A stretch of 64,000 bases of DNA from Naegleria gruberi (Eukaryota), in assembly GCA_000004985.1 (NCBI GenBank), contig GG738866.1. One strand, given 5' to 3'. Shown here piece by piece: positions 25,564-49,543 of this stretch. Position 1 is the stretch's first letter. Each line of letters opens with the position of its first letter. The notes under the pieces were generated by a model, which did no database searches, had not been told where the DNA came from, and worked only from the letters and a program-made list of their open reading frames with translations. The translations under genes were made by a program, and so were the position numbers.

Positions 25564-27435
25564 ATGAGCAGTAATAATACTACGCACTCACCAGAATCAT
25601 CATCATCTTCTCCTAACGGCAATATTCATCCGATTGCTTGTATTGCTTGTAGAAAAAGCCATCGGTATGTATTATACAGAATTAACAATTAATTTAAATA
25701 ATAATGAATAACACTATTAATATTTAAATTAATCGTTAATAATATTACATTACGTTATATATTAATAATACTATTTAAATAATAATTATATAGTAAATGT
25801 GACCGATCACTACCAATATGTAAAGAATGTAAATCACGAGGAAGAGAATGTTGCTATCCACCACCCATGAAGAAAGGTCCTCAGCCTAAAACCTCATCAC
25901 CCGAACAACACTCACCTTCTTCATCAGCCTCTTCTCTTGATAAAACCTCTCATCAAGTTTATAATACTTCTTCTTCATCATCATCAATTAAATCAACAAG
26001 TTTATCATCACATAGACACAATCCCTATCAAACAACAACACCTTCATCATTACCTTCCTCTCATTATGACATTTCTAATAATTCATCAGAACCTGCACCA
26101 TTCAATTATCAAATCATTGATTTATACTTTGATGTTGTGAGTGTTGGTTGTCCTGTTTTACAAAGAGATGCCATGTTGATGATTTGTTCGAAAAGACCTG
26201 AGGAAAATTCAAAGGCTGAGGAAGTGGCAATGCTCTATGCTATTCAAGCATTGTGTTATCAAAGATTGGGAAGAAAACTGGAAGGAAGGGCATCTTTCAA
26301 AATGGCAAGAAAATTCCTGTCGGATGTTTTTGACATTTTGGATAATTTTCAAATTGCTGCTACATTTCTATATCTTGCAAATTTTTGTATTGGAGAAGGA
26401 GAACCAAATCAGGCCAAGTATTATTTGAATAGTGTTCAATTTTTCATTGATCAAAATAAGGAACAATTGGCAAATGATGAATTGTTTGGAAATTTGTGTA
26501 AAATGTTCATGTATATTGGATTGTTAATGAAGGAGGATGCTGTTATCTTCTCCAATGATGAAGGTCTTCAAGAAGGGGTTGGCACAGATTTAAAGAAACA
26601 ACTCATTCTTTCAGAGAAGGCTCTTGTAGTCATTTATCAATTCTTTGTCTTTTTCACACAACATATTTCAGATGGTGAGTGTGGAAAGACAGTTCCACCA
26701 TCTACTTCTGAAAGTATTTTACAGGAATACATTCTAACAATCAATAGTCAGGCAATACAATACAATAGATATCAATTGGAGAGCTCTCCAGCCAAATCAA
26801 GTGTTCACAAACTTTTACACTTGTTTATCATTGATGGATTGAGATTGGGAATATTATTGAAATCACCTAATAATGCTGATGACGCTATCATTGAAATTGC
26901 CAACAGAGTCACCAATTATTCCACCTTAATGTACTTTCCTTATTTACCTTCCCATATTATCTCTGTTGTCGCTAATGCAGCAAGAGTTCACCTGGCAATT
27001 GTAAAACAAATACAAAGAAGGGAGCGATTTGATAATGGCGTGGATTACCATGACATTATTAGGAAAGATCACAGAGCTTTAACCATACTCGCTGACAGAT
27101 ATACCATTGCAGAAAACAAGGCAAGAACTCTTGTTAAACAATTACGTGATGAGTTGGTAGAACGTGAAAATCAATTGGCTAGAATGTACCGACAACCAAC
27201 CCAGCAACAATCTCTGCCTCAATATTCTGCCATTGATTTGCCAAATGTAATTCCAAATGATGAGGAATCTTCACAAAGACTTGAAGAAATGCTTGCCAAT
27301 AATCCTGGTATTGATAAATTGCCACCACTTCCATCATCAAATGAGGAGCAAGCATCTAGTCCATTCCTAGATTTTGACTTTTTCACCCCATCCAATAGTG
27401 AGAATTTCTACACTGACCCACAAATGTTACTGTAA
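25564..27435 (+). CDS. Zn(II)2Cys6 binuclear-cluster transcription factor with fungal-type middle homology region, 2 exons
   Basis: Exons 25564..25664 and 25794..27435; intron 25665..25793 (GTATGT...TATAG, phase 2). The spliced product reads 'ACIACRKSHRKCDRSLPICKECKSRGREC', an exact C-x2-C-x6-C-x6-C-x2-C-x6-C Zn2Cys6 signature. Downstream 'LMICSKRPEE...MLYAIQALCYQRLGRKLEG...AATFLYLANFCIGEG' resembles the Fungal_trans region. Confidence 0.85.
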
Positions 27436-28849: not shown

Positions 28850-31800
28850 TCATTCTTGTGCTCTGATTGCAGAAATTATTGCCTGATTCAGATCGTCTTT
28901 AGAAATTGGCTTGTTGAGGCACGAATCAATAGAGTCCATATTATTAAACTTGTCCATTAGGGCATCAGCCGTTAAGAGAATAATTTTGACCTTATCACCA
29001 TTTGGCAAGGATCGAATCTCATTTGCTGCGTCAATTCCATTAATGATGGGCATGTGAAGATCCGTTACAATTATAGGGTGATACTCCTTCCTGAAGGCCT
29101 CAATCAACTCGAAACCATTGGCACTTGTTGTGATATTTTTGAATCCACCTTTTTGTAATAGTTTTTTAAGTACAGAAAGATTGATAGGATTGTCCTCAGC
29201 AAGTAATATCTTAGTTTCAAAGATATCAATGCAACCTGTAACGGTGACGGAACTCGTGTTTTCCGTAGTGTTGGTTGTTGTGGTCGTAGTGCTTGTAGTA
29301 ATGGATCCCGTAGAATCTTGTAGAGAATGTTTTGGCGAGGCAGTAGTACTGCTCTTTGATTGTCTCTTCTTCATCATGTACAATTCCTTATGGAGGAGGT
29401 GAGTTTTTTGAATTTCGCTATCAATATTATTTAGAGCATTTGGTATGGTGCCCAAATCATCACTCTTCTTAATGTGAGAGTCGAGCAAAATGGTACTGGC
29501 ACCAGAAGATGAGGTCATACTCTCAGTACTCATCGATTGATTCACAATTGGATTTGTTCTGAGGATTTCTTCAATTTGTTTGAGGGAATTCTTCTTCTTT
29601 TTATCAGGAAGTTGGAATGGAATTGAAATGCAAAATGTAGTACCATGATTTGGTGATGGTTCACAAAGGGTTCTATAGCTAATGCCACCTTTCATGTTGA
29701 TAATAATCTTTCTAAGAATGGTCAATCCAAGGCCTGTGCCAATCACACTACCATCACCATTGTGATTGTGACTGGAGAAGGGTTTGAAGAGTAATTTTTG
29801 AATATCCTTCTGAATACCACATCCATGATCGATAACCTTGAAAACAACAGTCTTGATGGTTGGAGTTTCTTGTTGGAGGAGTGTTTGTGCTGATGATTCA
29901 GTACTGGTGGTACTTGTTGGCTCAATGGATAGATCCTTCCTCTTGACTACTACAATTTCCTTAGCGCTTGATCTTCCATCATCAATGATATCTTCTGGAT
30001 TATCATCCTCGAGTACTTCAACTGCGAGGGTAACAACTTGATTTCTCGAAGAAGCCTTAATTGAGTTGGTTAATAAATTGATAAGAACTTGTTGCAAACG
30101 AACACTCTCTCCCAAAACATAGGACGGAAGGAATTTGCTCGTCACAAAATCAATGGTCACATCAAAGTTAGAAGCATACGAGCTGGCAATGCTTCTCACA
30201 TGTTGTAAACAATCGAAGAGGGAAAAGACAGTCTTGTGGTTTTCAACCTTTTCTTCATTAGTTGTATTTTTACCAAGCATTGAATTGGTGGCAATTTCCA
30301 TGTTTGTCTTTTCAAGTTTTGAATATTGTAAAATATCTTCAATCAGGGTTAACAAGATTGAGGAACAACTTCCAATAGTTTTGATGTAATTAATTTGTTC
30401 AGCATTTAGAGTTGTATCCAATAAGAGTTCAATGCTTCCAGAAATACTCATCTATATTTTTGCATTCAGCAGTGATATATTTGAAATATATTGTTAAATA
30501 TATGATTAGTTTCAAAGGTAGAAAAATATTTGAATCGGGTTATAAAGTTTAAACATACCAATGGAGATCTAAACTCATGAGAAATGGAACTGACAAGTGC
30601 ATTCTTGGAACGATTAGCTTCCTTCAGTTTGCTTGTCATTAACTTCATAGTATTGAGTCTGTTCATTAACTTGTAACTCACCGAATTGAGCATAAAGTTC
30701 AAAACAGTAAGCAAGCAAAAAGTACCAAATGCTTCAACATATCGATTATGGACCACTGACAAAATGATGGCAATACCCACCGAAACAATGTGTTGTGAGA
30801 GGATAACCCACATGATAGCCTCATATGAGTGTACCCTGCAATCCACAAGTGCATTCTGAAGAATAATGTATGAATAATTGTGCACAGTGCTCGAGAGGAA
30901 TCCAATCATTAGCCATCCAACAGTATAATCCTTTGTGCACAACAAAAGTCTAAGGAAGAACACTGCAATATTCACTACAATCATAACTTTGCAAGTGTAG
31001 ACTTCCAACAACCGTTGTTTCTTTGCTGCCAAATAGGAAGCATCTACAGGTGTTCCACTTGAGGAAGAAGAGGATGCTCTCGTGGTGGTGGAGGATGTCG
31101 ACGATGAGCCAACACTTCCAAATCTCCAAAAATCACTTGATGAATAGAATGGAACAGTGTTTGGTTCCTTTTGTCCTTCAGATGTTGATGATGATGGGGG
31201 TAGGGGTGTTGTGAGTGGAATTACACTCTGATCAGAATTGCCACCAACAATATCTTCATGTTCTACAATTTCTCCTAGTGTGGCTGCATCCCTGGATAGA
31301 TGTTTTATGAGCCAAACAACCAATCGTTGTTGTACCAAATTTCTAACATATTTAAAATTGATAACAATGGCAATAATGCATAAAAAGCTCATGCTAATTG
31401 GATAGTCGGTCGAGTAGACAATCAAATAAGCATAACAAAGGAAAAGACAAATCGGAAGGAAGATTTGGTGCAACTTTTCATTCAAGATCATAGCCGAATC
31501 ACCTTGCATAAAGCTTGTATTATTTGATGATTGATTGAGTTGTGGTGAAGTTGCAGAAGGTGGTTCTGTTGGCGAGCCAAAAATACTATTTCTTCTGTCT
31601 TCAATGTTTGCATTGTTACTAATTGCAGGATTATCAGAAACAGACACTCGAACCTTTTTTGATGAAGTTTCTGTTGTTGGTACATTTGTATTATTTCCAG
31701 AGGATTGATAGGTTGATGTTGTTGTAGTTGAAGGGGTGGTAGAAGTATGTACATTGTTAGTAGAAGAAGAATTGTAGTGAGGTGATGTAAAATTAGAGGC

Positions 31801-32409
31801 TGATAAAGAGGAAGCCAGTTCGTCAGCATTGATGGTTGCTCCTGTTGTTGTATCAGGAGAGGATTTTCCAGAACTTGATAAACTCTCATTAGAAGAACAA
31901 GTTGATGAAGTGGAAAGGCTATCATTTCCCGAATCCTTTCTATTGGTATTAATACTTGTTGTTGATGTTTCCACTGTTGGTGAATTTCCTCCAACTAATT
32001 GTGAGGAAGTAGAAGAAGTGTGGCTAATGTGATGATGTTGTATCATGTCTGCTGTTGTGAGTGTAGTTGCACCACCTTCCACTATCGAGGAGGCAACAGA
32101 TTGATCACTGGGCATGATACGATTATTGTTACTTGCTACTTGTGCAGCTCCACTCATCTGGGTGTTTTTCTTTAGTTTTGCATCTATTTGAAGGGTTTCA
32201 AGGAAGTCGTCTTTATGCTTCAACATGTTCTCTTTTGGAGAAAGTTCGTTCAAGGCAAATTTGTTATCGGAATGTACAGTTGAGGGTTTTGTAATATTAA
32301 TTTTTTCTGTCGATTGTAAGTCCCTCATAATGATGAGTTGTTGCTTTCCAATTTGAGGTACAACTAGTGGTGTTATTTTCTTGGGTTGAGTTGCTTGATT
32401 ATTAACCAT
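28850..32409 (-). CDS. Hybrid sensor histidine kinase (multi-TM N-terminal region, HisKA, HATPase_c, C-terminal receiver domain), 2 exons
   Basis: Exons (minus) 32409..30559 and 30451..28850; intron 30452..30558 (107 nt, GTATGT...TATAG, phase 0). The splice rebuilds the H-box: '...SISHEFRSPL|MSISGSIELLLDTTLNAEQ...IEDILQYSKLE'. N-box 'LINLLTNSIK', G1 'VIDHGCGI', G2 'GTGLGLTI'. Receiver domain 'KILLAEDNPINLSVLKKLL...IVTDLHMPIINGIDAANEIR...KIILLTADA'. The N-terminal ~300 aa are Ser/Thr/Asn-rich, followed by 5-6 hydrophobic helices. Confidence 0.85.
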
Positions 32410-34356: not shown

Positions 34357-34430
34357 GCCTTCCTAGCTCAGTTGGCAGTAGCGCTGTCCTAGTAAGACAG
34401 AGGTCTTGGGTTCGATTCCCAAGGGAGGCA
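34357..34430 (+). tRNA. tRNA-Thr (anticodon AGU)
   Basis: 74-nt cloverleaf folded by hand. Acceptor stem GCCTTCC/GGGAGGC (one G-U pair), U8, D-arm with a G18G19-type loop 'AGTTGG', anticodon stem CTGTC/GACAG, loop C-T-AGT-A-A (U33, anticodon AGT), 5-nt variable loop, T-stem TTGGG/CCCAA with loop TTCGATT, discriminator A. The A box 'TAGCTCAGTTGG' and B box 'GGTTCGATTCC' are embedded. No CCA is encoded, which fits a eukaryotic nuclear tRNA. Confidence 0.9.
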
Positions 34431-35578: not shown

Positions 35579-37542
35579 ATGCAGCAAAATCGAAAGAATA
35601 GTAGGCAAGATCCAATTACATTGGAAAGGGTATACTTCTCTCCGGTATCATTGCAAAGTGATACTGAAAAACCATCATTATTCGAAAAAACTATTCGAAA
35701 GGAAAATCGTATTCATAATTTTTTCCTTAGTATTCGCATGAGTATTTGTACTTTCAATTTTATCATCTTTTTCATACTTGTTATAGTTTGTACATTAACT
35801 TTTGCTTTTTCCTTTCGCGATTCCTTTCGAATAGTTGAGAAGAAACAATCTGATGATTATTCGAAACAAACCATCAACGCTTTTCGAGATGAATTCTTAA
35901 ATCTTAATGACAAAATAGCCAACTATGCAATATGGGACAATATATACGAAATGGTCCATTCATCAAATGCTGCCAATCAAGTTTCTCTCTTCTTCCAAAC
36001 TTACTATCCCTGTTATTTCATGGAGAGAATGTCATTGAATTATATTGCAATGTATTATCCGAATGGTACCCTACTACATTACAAATCATGTTGGAATTTG
36101 GACGAAATTAATGGACTGATTGATGAATTAATTCATTTAGATTCGTTTTATTTAAGGAATTGGAATGATTCTTCAATGAGAGTGAATTCAATTTTGATAC
36201 CCAAACAGAAAATCAACAAGAAAACTTTCGAGTTGGAAATTCTTCCGCCAATTCAATTTAAAAATCATGCAAATCTTACGTATGAGGAAATTCTATTAAT
36301 TTCTGGAACCCCAATTCAAACTTTGAATACAAGTATGGCAGATGGGTTTATTATTTATGGAAGATATTTGGAAAGGGATGTTTTGAATGAAATTGCATTG
36401 AGAACTGGTCATTGCTTTACTGTTTATAATATGGATGATTTGACAGATGTGTCACAACTCAAAATTGATATGGATTTACAAAATGTGAATGGATTGAATG
36501 ATTCCCAAGTAGTATTTGAGTATTTAGAGAATGCCAATTATCATAATTTTGAATCTACTTTGAATGAATATTCATCTTTTTTTGATAGACACGAAATAGA
36601 AAGTTCAAGTTTTCTTACCAAAGTTTCACAAGTTTATTCATATGAAGATAGAACATGTCCTTCATACTTTGGAGTTTCAAATCCATCTACATCATCTGTT
36701 GGAACAAGATTAGTTAACTTTCTCTTATTCAGAGATTTTAAAAACAAGGCAGTAATGGTTGTGAGAATTGATGATGAGCGAAGGAATGAATCGATAATTA
36801 TTGGAGGATCCGCTTCAATCTATGTCTTCTTTGCACTTCTTTCCACAATCTTGAGTTTAGCATTGCAGGGATTTTTTGAAATTGGTATTATTCTAAGGGT
36901 TTCATCCATCCAAAAAATAATTAAGAAAGTCACACAAGACAATGACCCAACACTAAGAATACCCCCTCCAAAACACCAACTCCACGAAAAAGATGAAATT
37001 GGACAATTAGAAATCAACCTAAACGAAATGCTTCGAGCATTAGAATTGGTGCAACACAAACTCTCAAAAGATAACGAAATGATGAAAACAATTTTGGAGA
37101 GAATTACTGTAGAGGGAGAGAAATGTAAGGCAGTGATGAATAGTATTCAGGATTTTATATTTATTGTGGAGTGTGAGAGTGGAAAGTTGATTAGTTCGAA
37201 TGAAACATTTGAAAGAAAGGTTTCCAATGGTTCAAAAAATGTTTTGTGAATCAAATTATTTGTAATGAGAAGGATTTCATATCATTGGAAGAATCATTGC
37301 TAACTTTGGAATATTTATCTCAAAATCAGAATTGTGAAAGATATTTGGCCATACTCATTACGAATCCACTTGCTGAGAATGATAATCCATGGGATGACGA
37401 AACAATTCGAATAAGAAATGACATTCGTTCCAAGCACAACATTCCCATCACCTTATCAGTTGCCAAATCAAGAATTGTGTTATCGAAAGATACCATTGGA
37501 GATGCCTTTATCATTCTCGCTAAACCTCTCTTGGCGGTTTAA
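35579..37542 (+). CDS. Membrane sensor protein: TM - ~330-aa extracytoplasmic domain - TM - HAMP - PAS; no obvious output domain. The reading frame breaks near 37210-37330, from an intron or a frameshift.
   Basis: ORF 35579..37249 has TM1 'ICTFNFIIFFILVIVCTLTFAF' and TM2 'SASIYVFFALLSTILSLALQGFF'. HAMP-like 'DEIGQLEINLNEMLRALELV'. PAS start 'MMKTILERITVEGEKCKAVMNSIQDFIFIVECESGKLISSNETFERK'. ORF 37246..37542 starts with GTG and continues PAS-like ('...NCERYLAILIT...IPITLSVAKSRIVLSKDTIGDAFIIL') in another frame. A weak-donor intron 37241..37329 (GTTTTG...ATCAG, 89 nt) would join them in frame; a +1 frameshift is the alternative. Confidence 0.55.
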
Positions 37543-37888: not shown

Positions 37889-40644
37889 ATGAAGAATAAG
37901 GTAATTCCACAAGGTGAGGATAATACTCATCAACAAACACCTTCATCATCCACTTCATCAACAACACGAATGGCACTCCCAAACAAAACCTCCTCTAATA
38001 GCAGTATTGTTGTTGGGGGAGTGTCTCCTGTTGCCACATCTCCAGTAATGACCACCACCAACACCAACAACAAAACGACAAAACAAGATTCTTCCCAATC
38101 ATTCTCTATACAGGCAAGTGGGAAGGAGAGTGGTAAGGATTTAAAGGCCAGTTATCAAAGTTATCATTTTCATCCTAATCATGAGGATGAAAACGCCTCA
38201 ACCACCTCACATATGATGGAAATAGCCTATGGTGGAGGAATGTGTTTCAGATCAATAAGTTGCTGTTTGGTGGGGATTATATCTTCGTTGGTGATATTGT
38301 CGGTAGTTACATTGACTAGTATTTGGATATCAACTACTGTTCCAACATTAGCTGTGATGAGTTCGCAATTGAGAGTTGAGCAATTTTCAACAGTTGTAAA
38401 TAATATTAATCAAACGATACAGAATTTGGTCATTGGTATGTTTTTACTTTACCTTAATATACAAATAATACTTTTTCTAATTATAATTTAATATCTTGAT
38501 GGTATTTTTTATAGTATCTGAAACAACGAAAAGACTGTTAACAGAAGATTTTAATTTTTCAGATCCCTCCCTCATTGAAAAGACAATGTATAATTTGTAT
38601 AAGAGTGAAATGGCTCTAGGGCGATCTGAAATTACAATAACGCTGTATATTGGTGATACAGTGGGAAATTGTTGGGGGATTTATAGATCTGGTGATTCTG
38701 TCTTTTATCTAGATGTGAACAAACAACAGGGGCAGAAAATGTACCTTTGTGAAGATGTACAACACTCGGATTATTGCAAGAGAAATCTTGTGAATGCAAC
38801 TGTTGAACTGCCACCATTTGATCTTTCTCCATTGGTCACACATTCTCATGAGCATAGTGGAAGACCGTCATTTTCATTGAGTTATGTAGATTCGACAGTA
38901 CCTAGTGTGACTTTCCTTACACTCCTTAACACTTTCAATTCATCAAGAGTGAGCAATTTCAATTTCAATTATTATTTTGGTTATGATGTGACTTCAGCTT
39001 CAATTTCTTCTTTTCTAGAGAAACAAACCAAATCTGTTGATGGATCAGTTGCGTTTGTAATTGAAACTAAAACAGAATTCTTGATAGCATGTAGTGATAC
39101 TGCCCATCCCCTTGTTGAAGTTAATGAATCAAATGGAGAGGTGATCAGAAAAACTGGATTAACTTTTGCAGATGAATTAACATTCAAAATCGCTCAATTC
39201 ATGTATCATAGTGTAAATAATAATCTGAGCTCCCTAACTTGCGGAAAGGTTCTGTTGGCAGAGGGATCGTTGTACTATATCAATGCTATGAGAGTTTGTT
39301 CAGAACAGGATTTGGACTGGATTATCGTTTGGGCAACACCTCAGAATAGATATACTCAGAGTACAGTAATTGCATTGACAGTGTCTGGAATTTCAAGTAT
39401 TATCATTATCAGTGTTGCTCTCATTGTTGGATTTTTAGCATCCAAGTCAATTGTAAAACCATTTCACAAATTTATGCAGGCAGCAGAATCAATATCAAAT
39501 ATGGAATTGGAATCCTTTTCATTCTCAGATACTCGTATTATTGAAGTGGAAAAGCTGCAAAAAATGTTTGTCATGTTGGCAAATCGATTGAAAACCTACA
39601 GAAGTTTCCTACCTTCTAACGTCTTACTTGAAATTGATAATGGTGGAAAGGATATTAATGCCAATTCAAGTTATCACACCAAAGAATCTCATTTGGGATC
39701 ATTCCTAGTTGGAGGACATAGTAGAGGTTCAAGTTCTTTCAGCTTTAAGAAGAACAAACTGGCTTTAAGATTGGAAAAGAGACAAGTGACAATGTGTGGA
39801 ATTTATATTGAAGGATTTGATTATTGCATACATCATTTGGATTATCACGATATTATTATCATGTTGAGTGATTTATTTGACTCGATTCATAAAACTAGTC
39901 TGACTTCAGCTGCAGAAGTTGGACAATTCGATAACGAGCTCATCACTTTGGCCTGGAACTCCCTGGCTGATCAACCAAACCACATCTTTAGAGGAATTTC
40001 AAATTGTCACATTCTTAGAGATAAACTCTTGAAATCCCTTGAAAAATGGAATGCCAGAGAAGATATTGATCAAGCTCTCAATATTCGAATGTCGCTCCAC
40101 ACTCAAGAATCAATTGTTGGAAATATAGGTACGAGAGAAGCAAAGAGTCATGCCTCCATAGGAAGTTGCCATGCCAACATGAAGAAACTTTCCAAAACTT
40201 GTTCCAGCTTCTCAATTTCACTTCTGGTAACTGAACCAATTCACAAGGAATCTTCCGAATCATTCCTTACAAGATATATCGACACTATTCGATTGTTCCG
40301 TCAAAATGACTGCAGTATTAATATGAGTGAGGAAAAAACAGAAGATGTTGCAGTGTACGAAATTGGAAATAGAAATGATGTTAAAATGGATGGTAAGTAA
40401 TGCAAATATTATTGGCTTAACTAAACTATTTAAATTTCTAATAGAATGGATGTATGAATTGAAGGAAAGGGGAGAGAAAACCAAATGGGATCGATACATT
40501 CTAGGATGTCAATATTTCCACAATGAAGATTACAAAGAAGCTTTCGAATTTTTCGAAGATTATGAAACAATTTTCGAGGAAAGATATGGTCGCTCTGATT
40601 TACCAACTCTAAATCTAATGGCCAAGTGTAAATTGCATTTATAA
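37889..40644 (+). CDS. Receptor-type protein: N-terminal TM, ~380-aa extracytoplasmic domain, TM, HAMP-like linker, class III nucleotidyl-cyclase homology domain with a substituted metal-binding residue (probable pseudo-cyclase); 3 exons
   Basis: Exons 37889..38435, 38515..40392, 40445..40644. Intron 1 is 38436..38514 (GTATGT...TTATAG, phase 1); intron 2 is 40393..40444 (GTAAGT...CTAATAG, phase 1). Both join three track ORFs in frame. TMs 'CCLVGIISSLVILSVVTLTSIWI' and 'VIALTVSGISSIIIISVALIVGFLA'. The cyclase-homology domain spans about 39760..40250: 'RQVTMCGIYIEGFDYC' aligns to 'VTxLFADIVGFT' with D replaced by Y; 'GQFDNELITLAW' aligns to 'IGDxYMA'; 'RMSLHTQESIVGNIGTREAKSHASIGSCHANMKKL' aligns to 'GxHxGxVxAGVIGxxRxxYxxxGxxVNxAxR'. 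Confidence 0.75.
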
Positions 40645-40676: not shown

Positions 40677-41810
40677 ATGTTTTCAAAAATTTGGAAGGCT
40701 TCTCTGACCTGTCATGATCTAAATATAAAGATTACAAAAAAAATGGGCAACAAGCAACCTTCCAACACTCCAGCCTTGCCTGCTGGTTATTCAAAGTCTT
40801 CATCATCGTGTACACCATCGAAGAGTAGTGGCCACTCTTTAATTACTGATTATTTTTCTACCAATTGTAAATTAATTAGAATTAGTGATGCTGATCGGAA
40901 ACAAGAATTGGAAAGTATGAATAGAAACAAAATTAAATATTCAAGTAAATTGGAAAATAATTTACCAGAGGAAATGATCATTCACATTTTGGATTATTTA
41001 CCCATTAGAAATTTAGTATTATTGCAACAAGTTTCGAAAAATTTCAAAATCTATTGGACTCTGTTTCCAGAATTGTGGACTAAATTTTCTGCTCCAATGA
41101 TGTACATGCCAGACAATAACGGAAATTGGACTAGCAGTTATATTCTCTTTCAACAATTCAAATTCAAATTGATGAATTCTTTTGTGAAGGATAAGAAAAC
41201 TCCTAATTTAGAAGGAAAAATTTCAAGAATTGCAGTGTTGGGTGATGATAAAATTGGAAAGACAATCCTTCATCATAGAGCATTTGGAGGTGAACCATTT
41301 TCAGAGATTTACACTTGGACCATTGGTGTCGAGTTTTTCAATCGAATTAATACTCAAAATTTATTGAGAATGCATTCGTGGGATTCTGGTGGTAATGAAC
41401 GATTTAGGGAAATTGTTTGGGGATATCACAAGACTGTAAAGAGTCACTTTTATTGTTTTGATTTGAATAATCACAATTCTTTTGAGAATGCCAAGAAATT
41501 ATTCTACTCTTGGAAGGAAAGATTTTTACAAACTGAAACTGTCGAGTCATTTTTGCAAAGTAATGAATCGTGCATTCTTCTACTGGGATTGAAATCAGAT
41601 TTGGAGCATAAAGTGACTCGAGATGAAATTCATGAATTTTTGGAAGATATTGAGCCACTTAAAAACAAGACACTTCACACCAGCAAAGTTCAATATTTTG
41701 AATTGAGCTCTAAATTAGATTCTGAATCGGATCTGCTTTTCCCATTTATTTATGCATGTTCGGTGGCGATTGAAAGGCCTCTTTTTTCTTCTTTTGGAGG
41801 TTCTAAATAG
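40677..41810 (+). CDS. F-box domain fused to a Rab/Ras-like small GTPase domain
   Basis: 377-aa ORF. An internal ATG at 40743 is an alternative start. F-box 'LPEEMIIHILDYLPIRNLVLLQQVSKNFKIYWTLFPELW'. GTPase motifs: G1 'VLGDDKIGKT', switch I 'TWTIGVEFF', G3 'WDSGGNERF', G4 'GLKSDL', G5 'ELSSK'. Starts only 32 nt after the stop of the upstream gene. Confidence 0.75.
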   Translation: MFSKIWKASLTCHDLNIKITKKMGNKQPSNTPALPAGYSKSSSSCTPSKSSGHSLITDYFSTNCKLIRISDADRKQELESMNRNKIKYSSKLENNLPEEMIIHILDYLPIRNLVLLQQVSKNFKIYWTLFPELWTKFSAPMMYMPDNNGNWTSSYILFQQFKFKLMNSFVKDKKTPNLEGKISRIAVLGDDKIGKTILHHRAFGGEPFSEIYTWTIGVEFFNRINTQNLLRMHSWDSGGNERFREIVWGYHKTVKSHFYCFDLNNHNSFENAKKLFYSWKERFLQTETVESFLQSNESCILLLGLKSDLEHKVTRDEIHEFLEDIEPLKNKTLHTSKVQYFELSSKLDSESDLLFPFIYACSVAIERPLFSSFGGSK

Positions 41811-41852: not shown

Positions 41853-42725
41853 CTATTGAGTAGTATCTTCACACAAAGTAAACTTTCCAATGGTTAATCT
41901 CTCATTGGAACGATCTTTAGAAATTATATCTCCCTTCCACACTAGCTCATTTAACATATTTTCTCCTTTTACATAAAGAGTACAGCAAACGTCATCATCC
42001 AAGTTATAATACCTCTCTTGGAGAGTTGCTCCTAACATTCCACTACCAATTTCAAATAAGAGTTTTCCCTTTTCAAATAACATTTCAATATCAATCTCTC
42101 CATTTGAATCCGATGCCTTAAGAATCAAACATTCTTTCATGTCATCTCTAATTGTCATCACTTGCTGGAGCTTATATGTATCAACATCCCCCTCCTTCAA
42201 TATTCTGAACATGTTACCAACTGAAATAATTGAGCTCTTTGAAAACTCTGTATCATTTCTCCTTATTAAAACAGTATTTGGGCTATCCAAGCACCTATCA
42301 TCCGAGTTGTAGTGTACATTCCCTTCCACATCTTTCACTAAATGTTGTTCCATATAAAAATTAAAATTCATAATCTTGTATGATCTAGGTTCCTTAAACT
42401 CTGCATAGTAATCCTTCACATCCACTCTCGAACCAACAGAAAATGAAACAGAATGTGTGAGTGGTAAACAACTCTCAGAAATCCAATCATTAGGAGAGTG
42501 ATACTCCAAAGTAAGTCGCATTCTTTTTCCTATCAAATCCCTACCACTAGCAAACATTAAACACTTCTCCTTCTCATATTTGAACCGATCTTTCAAAAAT
42601 CCTCTCAATCTACCATCAGCAGCATCAGCCGTGTGGTTATTTACAAAATCCAACAACTCACAAGTTACTAAGAACTCTTCAATTTTTTTTAAATCTTTTG
42701 GGTAATGAATAATATTCAAGTTCAT
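41853..42725 (-). CDS. Hypothetical protein
   Basis: 290-aa uninterrupted ORF, ordinary composition, no recognisable motif. Ends 42 nt from the stop of the convergent F-box/Rab gene. Confidence 0.5.
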   Translation of the reverse strand: MNLNIIHYPKDLKKIEEFLVTCELLDFVNNHTADAADGRLRGFLKDRFKYEKEKCLMFASGRDLIGKRMRLTLEYHSPNDWISESCLPLTHSVSFSVGSRVDVKDYYAEFKEPRSYKIMNFNFYMEQHLVKDVEGNVHYNSDDRCLDSPNTVLIRRNDTEFSKSSIISVGNMFRILKEGDVDTYKLQQVMTIRDDMKECLILKASDSNGEIDIEMLFEKGKLLFEIGSGMLGATLQERYYNLDDDVCCTLYVKGENMLNELVWKGDIISKDRSNERLTIGKFTLCEDTTQ

Positions 42726-42966
42726 GATGTTTTACAGTGTGCGATTCAACACCTTTTCAAAGTTAAAAAAAAATATTCAATAGTTTTGTATTTTAAGAGA
42801 TGAACGGATTCTTCCAAGGAGGAACACCAAGGTGGTTGCCTGTTGGTTTTCAAGTTGTATGTTTTTTGAATGATAATGACGATGATGAATTTTAAATATC
42901 GGAATAATGATGATAAAATTGATGAAATACCGTTAATTGGATGTCATGAATATATAGCCACAACAA

Positions 42967-44134
42967 ATGATGACCAATCAACAACAATTTGTTAATCAAG
43001 CAACAATGGTTTATTATCGATATGATAAGGATAGAAATGGAGTTTTGAAGAAGAAGGAATTCAAGAAGGCTATGCAAGGTTTGTTTTTATATTTTGATAT
43101 CTTTGTTCCTAAAATGTGTCTTTTTCAAATTGTGGATGACAATGATGACGAATTTTCTCACTCTTGCATTTGTTCTACACCAATTAATTGCAATTACAAT
43201 TTTAGAAATGGGAGCTCATAAAGGTGAAACTAAGCATCTCTTCAAAATGGTTGATACTGATCACAATAAGGTCATCACTCTTAATGGTAAGTTTATTTAA
43301 CAACCGAGTGTAGGGTTTATTTACGCATGATGATTTTAGAATTTATTAATGGTATGTTTAAGCAATATTATGATTAGCTCATTAATTTTAGCATTCTTAT
43401 TCTTACAAAGTGGAGGTATGAGATATAAAGGAACTGGATATAGCGGAGCTTATGGAACTTTGGGATCAACAACCACAACCGTAACTTATACTGGAAAACC
43501 AGTGATGCAATCAGGAATGCAACCTCAAACAGGTTATGGTATGCCTCAAACAATGGCGGGCCAATATCCACCATCTCAACAATACCCTCCTCAACAAGGC
43601 TATCCACAACAAGGAATGACTAGCACTACCATGACAATGAATGGTCACCAATATCCACCTCAATATCCACCTCAATATCCACCACAACAAGGAATGCAAC
43701 CAGGTATGAATCCTCCAAGTTATCCACCACAACAAGGAATGCAACAACCTGGAATGTATAATCCTCAAACAAGTCAATATCCGCCTCAATCTGGAATGCA
43801 ACCACAACAAGGAATGTACGTTCCACAAACTGGTCAATATCCTCCACAACAACAAGGAATGCAACCAGGTATGAATCCTCCAAGTTATCCACAACAAGGA
43901 ATGTATACCCCTCAACAAGGAATGCAACCACAACAAGGCATGTATAATCCACAATCTGGCCAATACCCACCACAACAACAAGGAATGCCTCAACCTGGAA
44001 TGCAACCACAACAACAAGGAATGCAATATCCACAACAAGGCATGTACACTCCTCAAACTGGCCAATACCCACCACAACAACAAGGACAACAAGGAATGCA
44101 ATATCCACCTCAATATCCACCATCTCAACAATAA
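42967..44134 (+). CDS. Two-EF-hand calcium-binding protein with a long C-terminal Pro/Gln-rich 'YPPQQGMQ' repeat tail; proposed 4 exons including a 12-nt micro-exon
   Basis: Proposed exons 42967..43078, 43206..43286, 43340..43351, 43392..44134. EF-hand 1 '[14 protein letters not shown]'. EF-hand 2 '[12 protein letters not shown]|EFIN' (the glutamate at loop position 12 comes from the micro-exon). Introns 43079..43205 (GTTTGT...TTTTAG), 43287..43339 (GTAAGT...TTTTAG), 43352..43391 (GTATGT...TTTTAG, 40 nt) all keep frame. Alternative: the EF-hand protein ends at TAG 43375..43377, and 43349..44134 is a separate gene starting with a signal-peptide-like '[23 protein letters not shown]'. Confidence 0.5.
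43560..44130 (+). repeat. Coding tandem repeat (imperfect ~21-30-nt units encoding [15 protein letters not shown])
   Basis: Recurrent 'cctccacaacaaggaatgcaacca' / 'caatatccacctcaa' units. Translation '[57 protein letters not shown]...'. Confidence 0.75.
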
Positions 44135-44256
44135 TTGTAATTTAAGGTTTTCGTCTGTGGTGTTAACACCAACAAAGAAAATAAAAAAAATTGTCCAAAA
44201 GTGAAATCTCTACACTGCATTAATTAGACAAAATGCTTAAACCGAAACTCAATCAA

Positions 44257-45672
44257 CTACAGACCAATTTTTATTGCGTCAATTCTTGGAACTTTTTCTC
44301 TCAAAATGTAGAGCTTGTTATTTTGGGCTGCTACGATTTGAGTGTCTTCATCAATACTTCCTTGATCCTCAATGTTGACTTGTTGGAATATTTTACCCTT
44401 TGATGTTTCAACAAGGAGAATGGATTGGTCACAAACCACAGAAACAAATCTAGAGTTGGTATCAACAACACTGATTTGAAGCGAACATTGTTGTGAGACA
44501 GCTCCTTCAGAATTGATATTCAAAGTCCAAGTTCTTTCAATATCTTCAGCCTTACTCTTGAGGCCAAAGAGTTGGTAATTGCTACTTTTTGTACGACACA
44601 AAATTACAAACTCATCACCAACAGTGGCAATTGCATTGGAACAAACTGATGCCTTATCTGTCAAACCAATTGAAAGGGAGGAACTAGTCAAATTATTCTT
44701 GTCAAAAGTTGTTGCAAACACCATGAATCCATCAAGAGTTCTAAACTGTGAGAGAGCAAGCATTCTTGTTTTGAGAGAACTGAGATGGTATGGAACGAGA
44801 GAGGCTCCAGAACGTGATTGAGTAACAACTATACCAGTTTCGAGTTCGAATTTAATCAAACCACCATAAATTGAAGCAAAAGCGTATGGGCTGTTGGAGT
44901 CTCTAATGAGTTGACCAAAATATCCTTGTTCACTTGGAATCATGAAATTAATTGTCTTGGTAATGGTATCGATGGAAATAATATTTCTACTGGTTGAGAG
45001 AACGATTGAAGATTCGCCATATCTTTCAAAGATTAATAAACCGTGCATGATATCCATCACACCATCTGATTCATACATTGTGGTCCATTTCCAACTTGGT
45101 GAAATCTTGATGAGAACATTACTTCCCTTAGTGATATTCTTTCTGACAAGGAAATAATTTCCCTTACTATCGACAACTGGAGTTGGCATTACTGTATCAT
45201 AATCATTTTCCTGCAATTCAGCTGGAAGCATGAATTGTGAAATGGTTGAGTAGGAACCATCTTCCAAATTGACAGCTCCCATCAAGGTCATTGTTGGATG
45301 AGCAGATGGTTCAAACTGATCAGATCCTTTCATAAATGGATGAAGCAATACCAGCAATTGCTTCCCCACACTGTCTAACACAAGGGAGGAGGTTTCTATG
45401 GCCGATAATGACCATTCTCTCAAAATTAATGAAAAACTATCATGACGATAGTCAAAGGTGGAAAATCTCGATTGAGAACTATTTAAATTGACTTGTGTCC
45501 AAGGTGCATTATTTACATTACTATTTGTCTGTACATTTTGTGGAGTGGTAGTGGTAGTGGCTTTAATCTTATTGATGGCTATCGAAAGTGATTGAATAGG
45601 TTGTATCGTCAGCAGGGTGTTGATGACTAATATTATTGCTAGCAAAATTAATTGTACGGCTTGTTTCTTCAT
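44257..45672 (-). CDS. Secreted hypothetical protein (signal peptide, no recognisable domain)
   Basis: ORF 44257..45738. The likely start is ATG at 45672, giving 'MKKQAVQLILLAIILVINTLLTIQPIQSL' (signal peptide). The remaining ~440 aa are mixed-composition and beta-rich-looking. Confidence 0.55.
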   Translation of the reverse strand: MKKQAVQLILLAIILVINTLLTIQPIQSLSIAINKIKATTTTTPQNVQTNSNVNNAPWTQVNLNSSQSRFSTFDYRHDSFSLILREWSLSAIETSSLVLDSVGKQLLVLLHPFMKGSDQFEPSAHPTMTLMGAVNLEDGSYSTISQFMLPAELQENDYDTVMPTPVVDSKGNYFLVRKNITKGSNVLIKISPSWKWTTMYESDGVMDIMHGLLIFERYGESSIVLSTSRNIISIDTITKTINFMIPSEQGYFGQLIRDSNSPYAFASIYGGLIKFELETGIVVTQSRSGASLVPYHLSSLKTRMLALSQFRTLDGFMVFATTFDKNNLTSSSLSIGLTDKASVCSNAIATVGDEFVILCRTKSSNYQLFGLKSKAEDIERTWTLNINSEGAVSQQCSLQISVVDTNSRFVSVVCDQSILLVETSKGKIFQQVNIEDQGSIDEDTQIVAAQNNKLYILREKVPRIDAIKIGL

Positions 45673-46231
45673 CTTATTGTTTTTTTCAACTTGTCGGAAG
45701 GTTTTAATAAACAAGCCTTTTCTTCTTATATAAAACAAAGGCTTGTTCTCTCTCTGATGGTAGTTAGTACCTGGTGTCCATGGTCGATTATCCGAAGCTT
45801 AGGTAGCTACCGAAGAAAATAAGCAAGGAGATATCATCAAACAAGTACTAGTGGCTGCATTTTTTTTGGAAGTGTTTATTATTTTGGCGCGCTTTCCAAT
45901 TTGGATGAATATAATTTATTTGAAAAAAGCCAAAGGATTAGGAAAATTGGCTATCAGCACACAATTAAGAGATGGCATTTCCACTTGAAAATTCATACAT
46001 GCAAATACTTCAAACAAATTTTACAAGAAGTTGTTGTAAAAATAAAAATTTAATCATCCCTTTCAATGAGAAGATTCCTTATTCTTTGAATTTCGTGCGG
46101 GGATGACTATTGATTTTCCAAAAATTTATTCAAGTGTTTACAATAAAGTCACTTGTCACGAAACCAAATGGAAATCTCTAAATGGAAATTAAAATAATTC
46201 TAAATGAATTTAATGTACAATTTTTTGTTAA

Positions 46232-49200
46232 TTACTTTTTCTTCTTTCTACTCTTTTGTTCTTCATCAATTTGTCTCTTTGAGGCCAATGTCTTTTTATC
46301 GGCATACTGTATAAGAATGTCAATTATTTCTGATTGCGAAATTTCGAGACAATTCTTTCCTTGTGAATTTCTCAAACTCATATCTGTGTTTGGAGCCAGA
46401 GATTTGACCAAATTCTTGAAATCGGCTCTGATGGCAGCAAAGATTGGAGTTTCATGGTTGTCGTCTAATAAGTTCAATACTTTCTTTTTGGAAGCAGCAG
46501 AAAGTTTGGAGAGTAATGAAACAATAAGAGAATGCTTGTATGAGTGCAATTCTCTCTTTTCCACTCGGAAATAAACTGGCAAGGAACTATCACACAATAA
46601 ATGCATAATTGTTTTGCCTGATTTCTTATCCATTCTCGACAAGAATTGAAGAATTTCCTTCTCTGTTGTCAACTTTTCTTGAATTTTTTTAAGGGGATAA
46701 CCTTTCAACGCACAAACCTCCAACATGCTTAATTGATAAGTAACAGGCTCCTGAACGCAACTGTACATTTTCCCAATATACTTGATGGTAGAAGGATTGC
46801 TTGTGTTCCCGTAGTTATTAAGAAATTCAGTCAATTCTCTATTTTCATCTCTATTCACAAGTTGTACGATACACTTTTGTTCCAACAAATCTGAATCAAT
46901 TAAATCCTCAACTGGCTCTAATTCTGAAAAGTCACCAAAAGGAGTAAAATTGAAAATATAGCCTGAAATCAATTTCTTATCATCTCCTACTAGATTTTTT
47001 TCTTTAAGCTTACGCTTCAAAGACTCTTCTAAAATGTGATATTGCAAGTTTGCAGAAGCCAGTTCATTGATAGTTGACTCGCATTCGTCTAATGGTTTAC
47101 CTAAATAATGTATAATTTTTTTAGCCACCCTGTAATGACCATATTTCACTGCTAACTTCCAAGAATTTAATTTGGTAATACTGCTCTCCTCCTCATATAA
47201 CTTCGAATTGACACAATACTCATTATAAATTCCATTCATTGCTTGAAGAGCATAGTAATTTATCATTCCTTCATTTTCGTCTGTATAATTCCCATAATCC
47301 ACTGACCCATTCACTATGTACCTCTTTCTTGTAATCAAGCCAAGATCAGCAATAGTTTGAGTTTCAATACCAAGCATTAAATATGTATGTACAGGAGTTA
47401 GATTAACTACTCCAAGTGTTTCAGAACTCATTGTAATCTCAATCTCAAGACACTTTTTTAAAACCTCCTTACTCTTGTTCAAAATAGAAAAATAATTAAT
47501 GGAGCGTGCAAAAGCATAATACAAAAGTAATTTGGCTCCATTGATGTATGGTTCCCCCTTTTTTAACTCGAAAAATTCTGATTTGAACGGAACATTGGAA
47601 AGGGCATATTCCAAATCACAACCCCGTTCAACAAGCAAACTACTTAGCCGCTCAGAATCAAGGAGAGATTTGCAGAGTAGAGTTTGCCCATTTGCATCTC
47701 TCGAATTTAACTCCTCTAATTTTAATGATGCAAGCAATGTACTACTCCACATACTGGAATTCACAACAAACAATGCTGGTATTTCATCATTATTCTTGTG
47801 GCTGATATCAACGCCCAAAGTTGTAATAGCATAATCAGTAAGTGTGCTTGGTGCACGTGACAAAATATGGAGCAGATTACCACCATTAGAGCTTCTAAAG
47901 TCTTTCAATTCTTTGCCATTTCTTTGATATATTTTGTTGAAAAACTTTAAAAATTCCATACTGTTATAAGAACCAAATTGTCTTAATCGTGAGGCCCAAT
48001 TTTCTATTGCATTTAATCCATTAGAATTTGTTTTTTCTAAAGTTTCCAATTCAATATTCTCGAAGAGTGACAAACTTCCAGCACTATAATCTGAGATATA
48101 ACTTAAAATAGATCCTTCTGAACAGGTATAATTAAGGTCCACTCCAAGGTCTATTAAAGATTTGACTATATCGAATGGAATTGGGGAATAACTGTATACA
48201 TTCGACTTGAATAAACAGTAAAGAAGATTCATGTTTGCAGCATTACCCTCTATTATTCCATTACTATTTCCCAAATTTAACAATGTAGGCTCTCTTTCTA
48301 AAGCCTTTTTAAGTAATGTTATTTTCCGATTATTCACCAGGCATGTCAACGGGTTATATGCGCCTTCGATTATTAGTGGTATTTCTTTGTTCTCTATAAC
48401 TAGATTCAACAGATGATCATTTCCATTTTGAAATATTCTATTTAACATGTAACGGTCCATTTTGTATCTCAAATGAGGTTCTAGATCAGTATTAGCAACA
48501 AATTTTTTGTAAAATTCGTCAAACAATAAATCACTACGCGCCAATTCTGATTCAAATTCTGATATCTGGACAGGAATGTCTTGAGCCTTTGCATATTCAA
48601 TTATTACATCATATAGATCGTCATTTTTCAACTCTACAAGCTTGAATGGGTGCAATAGATTCCAATTAATATTTTCCTCATAAACCAGCATATCCCAAAA
48701 CTCTAGCACATTATCATATTCAGTGATAGGGTTATCAGCCTTTACCTTTTTCAATCGTGTCAGAAGTTGTTCTGATGTATTATGATACTTCAAATTAATT
48801 GTTTCTAGAGAGCTCATGGGAGTTTCTTTCTTATTGTGCAATCCATTCAAGTAGTTAATTATTTTGTTCTTGTCTGTGCCAAAATAGATGTAACCATTTT
48901 CAGAAGTTCCATAAATATTGACAGTCTTTAGATCTGAAGAGTGTTTGTTATTCTTGTGACAGTCCACTAAAACATCCAAAAATTCAAAAAGCCCAGTTGC
49001 CAAAGCAACACATTCCAAATCAAAAAATTCAAATGTTTCAATCTTGTTAGGTTGTTGAAAAAAGGCCTCCCAACCACTTTGACAAACTCTCAACTTGGTA
49101 AAATTTGGAAAATAACTAGCCATCTGTTTCAACTTGGTACTTTTAAACTTTTCAATTTGATTCTTTTCTCTGGTCAACAAATCAAGAACTTTCACCTTTG

Positions 49201-49543
49201 GAAAGAACACCTTCTCCAACTTGTTCTTCCAAAATCTATTCGTTGCTCTCATATTCAACAAATCAGGATAAACCGGTACAAAATCCAAAATATATTGCAT
49301 CAAATCTTCATTCACCTCTTGTCCCCACAAATTAAAGTAAAATTCTTGATCTTGTTGCGAATCGTCGTTGATTTCCATCACCGTTGGAGCAACAACATCT
49401 TTACCACCTCTCTTAGAGGAGGTTGATTTTGTTTGTTTCCTCTTCTTTTGCACTTTGACATTATCACCCGATGATGATGTTGATGATTTTGATTTCTTCG
49501 AAGTCTTCTTGTCCTCTTCTGTTCTTGCGCGGCGTGGAGGCAT
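46232..49543 (-). CDS. Large protein with basic Ser/Lys-rich N-terminus, F-box-like motif and degenerate ankyrin-like repeats
   Basis: 1103-aa uninterrupted ORF. N-terminal 'PPRRARTEEDKKTSKKSKSS...KKRKQTK' is NLS-like. F-box-like 'DLMQYILDFVPVYPDLLNMRATNRFWKNKL'. Ankyrin-like stretches, e.g. 'NGGNLLHILSRAPSTLTDYAITTLGVDISHKNNDEIPALF' and 'DNHETPIFAAIRADFKNLVKSLAPNTDMSLRNSQGKNCLEIS'. Confidence 0.55.
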   Translation of the reverse strand: MPPRRARTEEDKKTSKKSKSSTSSSGDNVKVQKKRKQTKSTSSKRGGKDVVAPTVMEINDDSQQDQEFYFNLWGQEVNEDLMQYILDFVPVYPDLLNMRATNRFWKNKLEKVFFPKVKVLDLLTREKNQIEKFKSTKLKQMASYFPNFTKLRVCQSGWEAFFQQPNKIETFEFFDLECVALATGLFEFLDVLVDCHKNNKHSSDLKTVNIYGTSENGYIYFGTDKNKIINYLNGLHNKKETPMSSLETINLKYHNTSEQLLTRLKKVKADNPITEYDNVLEFWDMLVYEENINWNLLHPFKLVELKNDDLYDVIIEYAKAQDIPVQISEFESELARSDLLFDEFYKKFVANTDLEPHLRYKMDRYMLNRIFQNGNDHLLNLVIENKEIPLIIEGAYNPLTCLVNNRKITLLKKALEREPTLLNLGNSNGIIEGNAANMNLLYCLFKSNVYSYSPIPFDIVKSLIDLGVDLNYTCSEGSILSYISDYSAGSLSLFENIELETLEKTNSNGLNAIENWASRLRQFGSYNSMEFLKFFNKIYQRNGKELKDFRSSNGGNLLHILSRAPSTLTDYAITTLGVDISHKNNDEIPALFVVNSSMWSSTLLASLKLEELNSRDANGQTLLCKSLLDSERLSSLLVERGCDLEYALSNVPFKSEFFELKKGEPYINGAKLLLYYAFARSINYFSILNKSKEVLKKCLEIEITMSSETLGVVNLTPVHTYLMLGIETQTIADLGLITRKRYIVNGSVDYGNYTDENEGMINYYALQAMNGIYNEYCVNSKLYEEESSITKLNSWKLAVKYGHYRVAKKIIHYLGKPLDECESTINELASANLQYHILEESLKRKLKEKNLVGDDKKLISGYIFNFTPFGDFSELEPVEDLIDSDLLEQKCIVQLVNRDENRELTEFLNNYGNTSNPSTIKYIGKMYSCVQEPVTYQLSMLEVCALKGYPLKKIQEKLTTEKEILQFLSRMDKKSGKTIMHLLCDSSLPVYFRVEKRELHSYKHSLIVSLLSKLSAASKKKVLNLLDDNHETPIFAAIRADFKNLVKSLAPNTDMSLRNSQGKNCLEISQSEIIDILIQYADKKTLASKRQIDEEQKSRKKKK

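Follow-up and report, generated by a model that had tools for sequence, protein, structure and literature searches.

Gene structure of the EF-hand locus

The region studied here lies on the plus strand of a stretch of 64 000 nucleotides (nt) from Naegleria gruberi contig GG738866.1 (the window; positions are counted from its first nucleotide) and encodes a pair of EF-hands followed by a long Pro/Gln-rich tail. The splice structure, here and in all intron and exon calls below, was derived from sequence comparison and not from transcripts. We consider it highly probable that the locus is a single protein-coding gene of five exons, called paralog A in the following, which would code for a small EF-hand protein with a long Pro/Gln-rich tail (Table 1). 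All four introns are short and of the GT–AG type, and exon 4 is a micro-exon. The original prediction had proposed, as one of two options, a gene in which the EF-hand pair is joined to the tail through a 12-nt exon and a 40-nt intron. The exons it listed, the 12-nt segment, the GTATGT donor behind this segment and the 40-nt interval ending in TTTTAG were all recovered as predicted, and colinearity with eight homologues as well as purifying selection (see below) argue for this single-gene form. Its claim that the glutamate at position 12 of the second EF-hand loop (Glu12) comes from the micro-exon was also borne out, as the Glu12 codon is split G|AA over positions 43286 and 43340.

Table 1. Exons and introns of paralog A in the window
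Feature	Position	Strand	Length (nt)	Intron phase	Remarks
Exon 1	42800..42856	+	57		start codon and MNGFFQGGTPRWLPVGFQV; carries the conserved W(L/I/Q)PxxF motif
Intron 1	42857..42957	+	101	0	GTATGTTT...ATATAG
Exon 2	42958..43078	+	121		EF-hand 1 loop at 43024-43059
Intron 2	43079..43205	+	127	1	GTTTGT...TTTTAG
Exon 3	43206..43286	+	81		EF-hand 2 loop positions 1-11 at 43253-43285; ends AATG|gtaagt
Intron 3	43287..43339	+	53	1	GTAAGT...TTTTAG
Micro-exon 4	43340..43351	+	12		AATTTATTAATG; completes Glu12 of EF-hand 2, then F-I-N, start of the exiting helix
Intron 4	43352..43391	+	40	1	GTATGTTT...TTTTAG; in-frame TAG at 43375-43377
Exon 5	43392..44134	+	743		end of the exiting helix of EF-hand 2 (AFLFLQSGG), conserved linker, ~215 aa of repeats, TAA at 44132-44134

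Joining the exons from the ATG at 42967 gives an in-frame coding sequence of 948 nt. With exon 1 included the product comprises 337 amino acids (aa) and reads, from the N- to the C-terminus, as a W-L-P-x-x-F motif, an EF pair resembling a calmodulin lobe, a GGM(R/K)YKGTGY...TTTT linker and the tail of ~215 aa. A pseudogene was ruled out by the intact frame of 337 codons, the low ratio of nonsynonymous to synonymous substitution rates (dN/dS) and the in-frame nature of the tail-length difference between two strains, both described below.

Comparison with homologues and splice signals

Homologues were sought with the first 155 aa of the spliced product, which retrieved NAEGRDRAFT_52589 of N. gruberi, an 'EF-hand domain-containing protein' of 184 aa (paralog B), together with metagenome proteins. 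For comparison we used eight homologues, namely paralog B, Willaertia magna ABK040_011000 (162 aa), Naegleria lovaniensis C9374_007835 (235 aa) and the proteins P0004, P0015, P0045, P0066 and P0162, and the DNA was read at six homologous loci (L001, L002, L004, L005 from N. lovaniensis, L006 from W. magna, and L007). All eight homologues carry (D/N)EF(I/L/M/V)N(A/G/S/V)(F/Y)L..GG and a low-complexity tail in one frame. Four elements of the family, which are the W(L/I/Q)PxxF motif, EF-hand 1, the EFxNA(F/Y)LFLQxGG helix and the Q/P-rich C-terminal tail, align with paralog B and L002 and are also present in P0015, P0056, P0057, P0066 and P0162. Paralog B reads ...VITMNEFLNAYLFLQAGGMKYKGTGYHGACGTVGSTTTT...PQ tail in one uninterrupted exon at L001, whose DNA (identical to paralog B in the C-terminal 123 aa) continues ...ATTACCATGAATGAATTCTTGAATGCCTATCTGTTCTTACAG... 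unbroken from EF-hand 2 through the tail. The passage from the EF pair into the tail is likewise continuous at L002 and L004, which are two paralogs of one relative, at the N. lovaniensis locus, at L007 and in the proteins P0066 and P0162, and in W. magna EFINGYLFLMSGG and the tail lie within one exon. The intron after EFxN is absent at all six homologous loci and both introns flanking the micro-exon are absent at five of the six. When the family alignment was run against JGI metagenome contigs, 600 pattern matches were obtained, none of which was confirmed as a relative by tblastn.

Paralogs A and B share the same genome and architecture (W-L-P-x-x-F, EF pair, LFLQxGGM(R/K)YKGTGY..TTTT linker, PQ tail) with 71% identity over 166 aa of paralog A, covering the N-terminal region, the linker and the start of the tail, and 78% in the best local BLASTP alignment. 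Their first two introns occupy identical positions and phases (the counterpart of intron 2 is L001 731-795). Paralog B differs in lying on another scaffold (309 kb), in having a tail of about half the length and in lacking introns 3 and 4 and hence the micro-exon. With a synonymous divergence (dS) of 0.9-1.8 the two are an old duplicate pair. The alternative that the window belongs to a different Naegleria species, with NAEGRDRAFT_52589 as the ortholog, was rejected: seven of ten long open reading frames (ORFs) of the window exactly match NCBI proteins of N. gruberi strain NEG-M on a single scaffold of 469,335 bp, the window is therefore NEG-M itself, and NAEGRDRAFT_52589 is a paralog.

The other heterolobosean homologues (W. 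magna, N. lovaniensis, P0004, P0015, P0045, P0066 and P0162) have the same domain order and helix as paralog A and tails rich in Q, P, M and G, but none of them has a micro-exon. In the N. lovaniensis protein EF-hand 1 is degenerate, and the N-terminus is extended by a His-rich and hydrophobic stretch. As a side observation, its annotated intron at L005 3568-3750 starts right after KGTGFT, while reading through gives GMSGVCYPTT…QVTTTTTTYHTT; this resembles the N. gruberi linker, so the annotated donor may sit too early. More distant relatives from JGI/Logan metagenomes (P0016, P0017, P0083, P0151 and P0165) show the reverse order, with a PQ/GY-rich N-terminus leading into a …VP.G.DP… motif and an EF pair ending EREF.EFWV, and some of them carry this unit twice in tandem.

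We regard the micro-exon as well supported on comparative grounds. It is 12 nt long (thus not above 15 nt), is flanked by ttttag|...|GTATGT, lies between phase-1 introns on both sides and encodes (E)FIN, in agreement with EF(I/L/M/V)N in all homologues; its codons in the window, (GAA) TTT ATT AAT, align one by one with GAA TTC TTG AAT of paralog B. In a 105-nt interval of the same composition the pattern AG|(G)AA-TTY-[I/L/M/V]-AAY-(G)|GT is expected by chance at 1.5e-5. Including the micro-exon raises the score of the EF-hand_7 profile (PF13499; Pfam curated cut-off 30 bits) by 9 bits, from 36.0 for the skipped form to 45.2 bits over residues 36-92 of the 337 aa. The frame across the micro-exon junction is under purifying selection: between the paralogs dN/dS was 0.07 for a stretch of 84 codons that begins with EF-hand 1 and ends with the TTTT linker, and 0.15 for the 30 codons with which exon 5 opens. 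Transcripts that include the micro-exon would contain AATGAATTTATTAATGCATTC and CTCTTAATGAATTTATTAATGCATTCTTATT, with the junctions ...CTTAATG|AATTTATTAATG|CATTCTT..., while ACTCTTAATGCATTCTTATTC is diagnostic of skipping and TTATTAATGGTATGTTTAAGC of retention of intron 4.

Homologues also bear on the start of the gene, which the original prediction had set at 42967, thereby missing a conserved upstream exon and the 101-nt intron that follows it. The motif W(L/I)PxxFxV with a phase-0 intron lies upstream at five other loci (L001 385-435, L002, L004, the N. lovaniensis locus and L007), and at L004 no ATG occurs after the acceptor until past the conserved NRQAW. In paralog A this upstream exon is in frame with exon 2, an in-frame stop lies just upstream of it, and intron 1 ends atatatag|CCA CAA CAA ATG ATG with the reading frame kept. 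Because the W. magna motif (YWLPQNFTIPQ) is joined directly to the EF pair with no intron, and hence is coding, the gene of the window would start at 42800 and not at 42967. The upstream exon of paralog B (MSYFIGQPSWLPPNFQV) is followed by a phase-0 intron of 174 nt (L001 436-609), and because both precede MAMQGQ, with which the public 184-aa model of paralog B begins, this model probably lacks its first 20 codons.

The splice signals of paralog A are those of the surrounding sequence. Four other introns could be inferred in the window by joining long ORFs (25665-25793, 38436-38514, 40393-40444 and, on the minus strand, 30452-30558); they measure 52-129 nt and have GTATGT or GTAAGT donors and TAG acceptors, and paralog A shares with them the GTATGTTT/GTAAGTTT donors and the TAG acceptors. 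All four copies of the octamer GTATGTTT in the window coincide with inferred donors, and two of them belong to the paralog A gene. At L007, a metagenome relative, the conserved 5' intron (1447-1490) is only 44 nt long and has a clear ACTAAC branch-point motif; therefore introns of ~40 nt are regularly used by this group.

A second N. gruberi strain, represented by L003 from metagenome ERZ929261, is ~99% identical to the window and has the identical gene structure. Divergence between the two strains was 0-2% everywhere, so that they are too close for exon and intron conservation to be compared informatively. The tail of the second strain (L003 ~1961-2318 versus 43641-44134 of the window) is shortened by in-frame deletions of 12 and 204 nt, which represent either a true polymorphism in repeat length or an assembly collapse of the repeats. 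The ERZ929261 sample also holds paralog B (L001), with a tail that differs from NEG-M by 8 residues.

Competing readings of the locus

Several observations weigh against the five-exon gene. That the micro-exon is included and the 40-nt intron spliced out was deduced and not observed, and a 31-nt probe for the spliced junction had no match in JGI metagenome contigs. The 40-nt intron is the shortest of the eight introns inferable in the window; its only strict YTRAY branch motif lies 7 nt from the 3' end, with a weaker aTGAT 18 nt away. The EF-hand_7 score is nearly equal for the spliced form (45.2 bits) and the form retaining intron 4 (45.6 bits). Three homology searches, based on the EF region, on the profile of the family and on the tail, gave no N. 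gruberi protein from the locus, except for two ORF fragments of L003 (P0001 and P0003). Accession numbering of the neighbouring genes (EFC44832/D2VE75 and EFC44834/D2VE78) implies one minus-strand and one plus-strand model within 42726-46231, and homology to any part of the 337-aa product did not retrieve this plus-strand model. Finally, the function of the protein is deduced from its domain content only.

Splicing at the locus could alternatively be regulated, with full splicing accompanied by functional isoforms that skip the micro-exon, retain intron 4 or do both in different transcripts. The skipped isoform would arise by a single in-frame excision of 105 nt and would lack EFIN and hence the Ca ligand Glu12 of EF-hand 2; the isoform retaining intron 4 would be an EF-hand-only protein of 98 aa. 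Skipping does preserve the frame, and the retained form matches the spliced one in its EF-hand_7 score and reaches 29.7 bits with EF-hand_8, above the cut-off of that profile. Transcriptomes of N. gruberi show intron retention and exon skipping (PMC6142364), and splicing is likely to be inefficient where so short an intron adjoins an exon of 12 nt. However, the retained form owes its good helix score largely to the donor consensus, since G|GTATGTT translates to G-M-F, no homologue shows a deletion of 4 residues or an EF-only form, and an mRNA retaining the intron would extend ~760 nt past its stop codon. We therefore consider regulated alternative splicing unlikely. Slightly less likely still is that the micro-exon and the 40-nt intron act as a splicing switch between a Ca2+-competent tethered sensor, a tailed form without Glu12 and the 98-aa EF-only protein; if true, a unicellular, deep-branching eukaryote would tune a calcium sensor through a four-codon exon, as animal neurons do.

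The same 105 nt (43287-43391) could in principle be one intron that is always excised, giving a protein of 333 aa without EFIN. Here the donor at 43287 and the acceptor at 43391 are strong, the frame is kept, the EF-hand_7 score of 36.0 bits is still over the cut-off, and a standard gene predictor would probably choose this structure. Such a protein would nevertheless lose the invariant Glu12, Phe and Asn that are kept in every homologue, and the 12-mer still reads E-F-I-N in the right phase between AG and GT despite a dS of at least 0.9 between the paralogs, for which the chance expectation has been given above. As the corresponding model is absent from the public protein collection as well, a constitutive 105-nt intron appears very improbable. 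We give even less credit to two overlapping genes, the second option of the original prediction, with an EF-hand protein ending at the TAG of 43375-43377 and a secreted PQ-repeat protein starting at the ATG of 43349. The frame stop and the ORF (43349-44134, 261 aa) do exist, the first ~20 residues of the latter are hydrophobic, and a prokaryote-style gene caller made exactly these two fragments (P0003 and P0001) on the metagenome contig of the same species. They are not to be seen as genes, however, for among the homologues EF-hand 2 is never followed by a stop and the tail never has a start of its own: at six homologous loci the EF pair and the tail form one ORF with neither a stop nor an internal start, and P0066 and P0162 are also continuous. 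What had been read as a signal-peptide-like N-terminus is intron 4 in translation followed by AFLFLQ, the second half of the exiting helix of EF-hand 2, and the frame of exon 5 is conserved with paralog B from its first codons on (dN/dS 0.15), in just the part that this option takes for a signal peptide.

Protein architecture, intron history and genomic context

Returning to the five-exon gene, the loop of EF-hand 1 satisfies every canonical position (D1, D3, N/D5, G6, a hydrophobic residue at 8, and E12). The loop of EF-hand 2 does so except at position 6, where Lys replaces Gly; Lys or His is also found there in the closest homologues, while P0045, P0056, P0057 and P0066 have Gly. The description of both loops as canonical thus fits the first completely and is slightly generous for the second. 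Besides EF-hand_7, the profiles EF-hand_6 (43.2 bits) and EF-hand_1 (40.0 bits) exceed their own cut-offs. The structure was predicted with AlphaFold for paralog B, which stands in for paralog A. In this model the predicted local distance difference test (pLDDT) score, as means over blocks of 10 residues, is 86-95 for residues 11-70 and 78 for residues 71-80, and the helices 2-19, 29-38, 43-53 and 63-74 make up two helix-loop-helix units in a four-helix fold. Helix 63-74 corresponds to the exiting helix MNEFLNAYLFLQ, and the chain is disordered beyond about residue 78. A Foldseek search with the model gave probability 1.0 to the calmodulin N-lobe, centrin, ALG-2 and polcalcin, and the nearest solved sequences to the EF pair were the regulatory domain of CDPK, Physarum LAV1-2, calmodulin and ALG-2. 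The EF pair is of a generic calmodulin-lobe type. By analogy with the model, one 12-residue exiting helix in paralog A would be built from three exons, with LN supplied by exon 3, EFIN by the micro-exon and AFLFLQ by exon 5.

The tail (238 aa) consists of 27% Q, 20% P, 14% G, 10.5% Y and 10% M and has three charged residues, all of which lie in the linker; the remaining ~215 aa are almost uncharged and predicted to be disordered. It contains five PPxY motifs that are not conserved among the homologues, and its DNA shows imperfect repeats with periods of 12, 21 and 63 nt that encode units of the YPPQQGMQ type. Judging from this domain content, the protein may act as a Ca2+ sensor in which the EF pair is attached to a multivalent low-complexity tail that would serve in self-association or in the binding of partners.

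The tails of penta-EF-hand (PEF) proteins and of annexins A7/A11 are rich in Gly, Tyr, Pro and Gln and disordered. Like paralog A, the PEF proteins (ALG-2/PDCD6, peflin, sorcin, grancalcin) and these annexins combine a Ca2+-binding module with such a tail, and the EF-hands of ALG-2 are among the nearest solved sequences and folds to this EF pair. The PEF family, however, has five EF-hands, dimerizes through EF5 and carries its Gly/Pro-rich tail at the N-terminus, whereas two EF-hands were detected in paralog A and its tail is C-terminal. The likeness of the tail to that of annexin VII/synexin, which had been pointed out before, holds for composition, but the annexin repeat (PF00191) gave no match at E <=1 in the paralog A product. 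The likeness to PEF proteins and annexins is one of composition and architecture and not of family membership. S100 fused-type proteins (filaggrin, trichohyalin, repetin, hornerin) resemble paralog A in joining an N-terminal domain of two EF-hands to a long, repetitive low-complexity region. In their genes an intron splits the EF domain, and a large last exon contains the second EF-hand together with all repeats (PMC2668185). They differ from paralog A in being vertebrate epidermal proteins with the S100 pseudo-EF-hand and no micro-exon, and in sequence they are unrelated to it beyond the EF-hand fold; the S_100 profile gave no match at E <=1 in the paralog A product.

Constitutive coding micro-exons of <=15 nt are described for plants and animals as frame-preserving, encoding conserved residues within domains, flanked by canonical splice sites and commonly unannotated (PMC8831610). 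The micro-exon of paralog A shares with them the tiny size, the preserved frame, the conserved domain residues and the canonical splice sites. It differs from them in its very short flanking introns (53 and 40 nt), in its occurrence in an intron-poor protist and in only one of two paralogs, and in not being deeply conserved. The view that either outcome at this locus would be unusual was overstated, as exons of <=15 nt are a known class that is often mis-annotated (PMC8831610). A literature search for Naegleria micro-exons, for NAEGRDRAFT_52589 and for intron-length statistics of N. gruberi found nothing.

The introns of paralog A would be removed by intron definition, and the two that flank the micro-exon are probably spliced out one after the other, because an exon of 12 nt is too small for simultaneous binding of a 3' splice-site complex and the U1 small nuclear ribonucleoprotein (snRNP). 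This argument draws on established knowledge from studies of vertebrate micro-exons.

Among the seven loci compared (A, B, L002, L004, L007, N. lovaniensis and W. magna), the 5' intron (intron 1) is present in all but W. magna, while the intron after AMQ (intron 2) is present in A and B and absent from the other five. An intron in the loop of EF-hand 2 is found in A (codon 12, phase 1) and W. magna (codon 11, phase 1) and is missing from the other five loci, and the intron after EFxN (intron 4) occurs in A but at none of the other six. The loop intron of W. magna (L006 3263-3363, 101 nt, phase 1) lies exactly 3 nt upstream of the position of intron 3 in N. gruberi, and this near coincidence could be due to intron sliding or to an independent insertion. 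So far, the intron pair that makes the micro-exon appears specific to paralog A. An origin of introns 3 and 4 by tandem duplication is not supported, as their alignment scores did not exceed those of shuffles keeping the splice consensus (intron 3 versus 4, p = 0.44), and local alignment of introns 3 and 4 with introns 1 and 2 likewise gave no excess over such shuffles. The data mildly favor loss of introns in the other copies over a double gain in paralog A, because the 5' introns are kept and the 3' introns missing elsewhere, and because of the W. magna intron 3 nt away. Loss of introns mediated by complementary DNA (cDNA) is biased toward the 3' end in the established model, and the pattern of kept 5' and missing 3' introns would fit such a process. 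With lower probability, introns 3 and 4 may instead be recent gains of paralog A in a lineage that is otherwise thought mostly to lose introns.

We compared nine candidate models, which represented the full, skipped, intron-retained, EF-only and tail-ORF forms with either start, with a collection of 15 billion proteins and found none of them in it. The public protein set seems to lack the gene, and the public annotation has either no model of the locus in this frame or a very different one. The gene model presented here corrects the annotation and gives the reference genome of a protist one more properly modelled gene. Together with its homologues the product makes up a small family of heterolobosean proteins, characterized by a WLPxxF motif, an EF pair and a low-complexity tail, for which there is neither a name nor a studied member. 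Since paralogs A and B differ by two introns 12 nt apart and W. magna has an intron in nearly the same place, they offer a natural case for the gain or loss of a micro-exon, and the locus is relevant to the question of how a spliceosome that works by intron definition copes with an exon of 12 nt flanked by introns of 53 and 40 nt. The result is a useful correction of the annotation and a micro-exon found in one paralog of a protist gene; it is not a new kind of biology, and the current understanding stands.

The gene is flanked upstream by NAEGRDRAFT_48828 (41853-42725, minus strand) and on the other side by NAEGRDRAFT_67181 (46232-49543, minus strand). Positions 1-14783 of the window are all N (a scaffold gap or padding), which leaves 49.2 kb of real sequence. 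In this sequence we further observed a single ORF at 40677-41810 (plus strand) with an uncommon fusion of an F-box (residues 95-129) to a Ras/Roc/Arf-like small GTPase domain (residues 180-350). On the minus strand, 28850-32409 encodes a hybrid histidine kinase (HisKA, HATPase_c, receiver) that is split by the 107-nt intron 30452-30558, and near it a CHASE4 sensor domain of bacterial type is encoded by an ORF on the plus strand (35579-37249). Positions 34357-34430 (plus strand) contain a tRNA-Thr(AGT) gene; a copy of it with 91% identity occurs at L002 322-395 (minus strand), ~200 nt upstream of the EF-hand gene of that locus.

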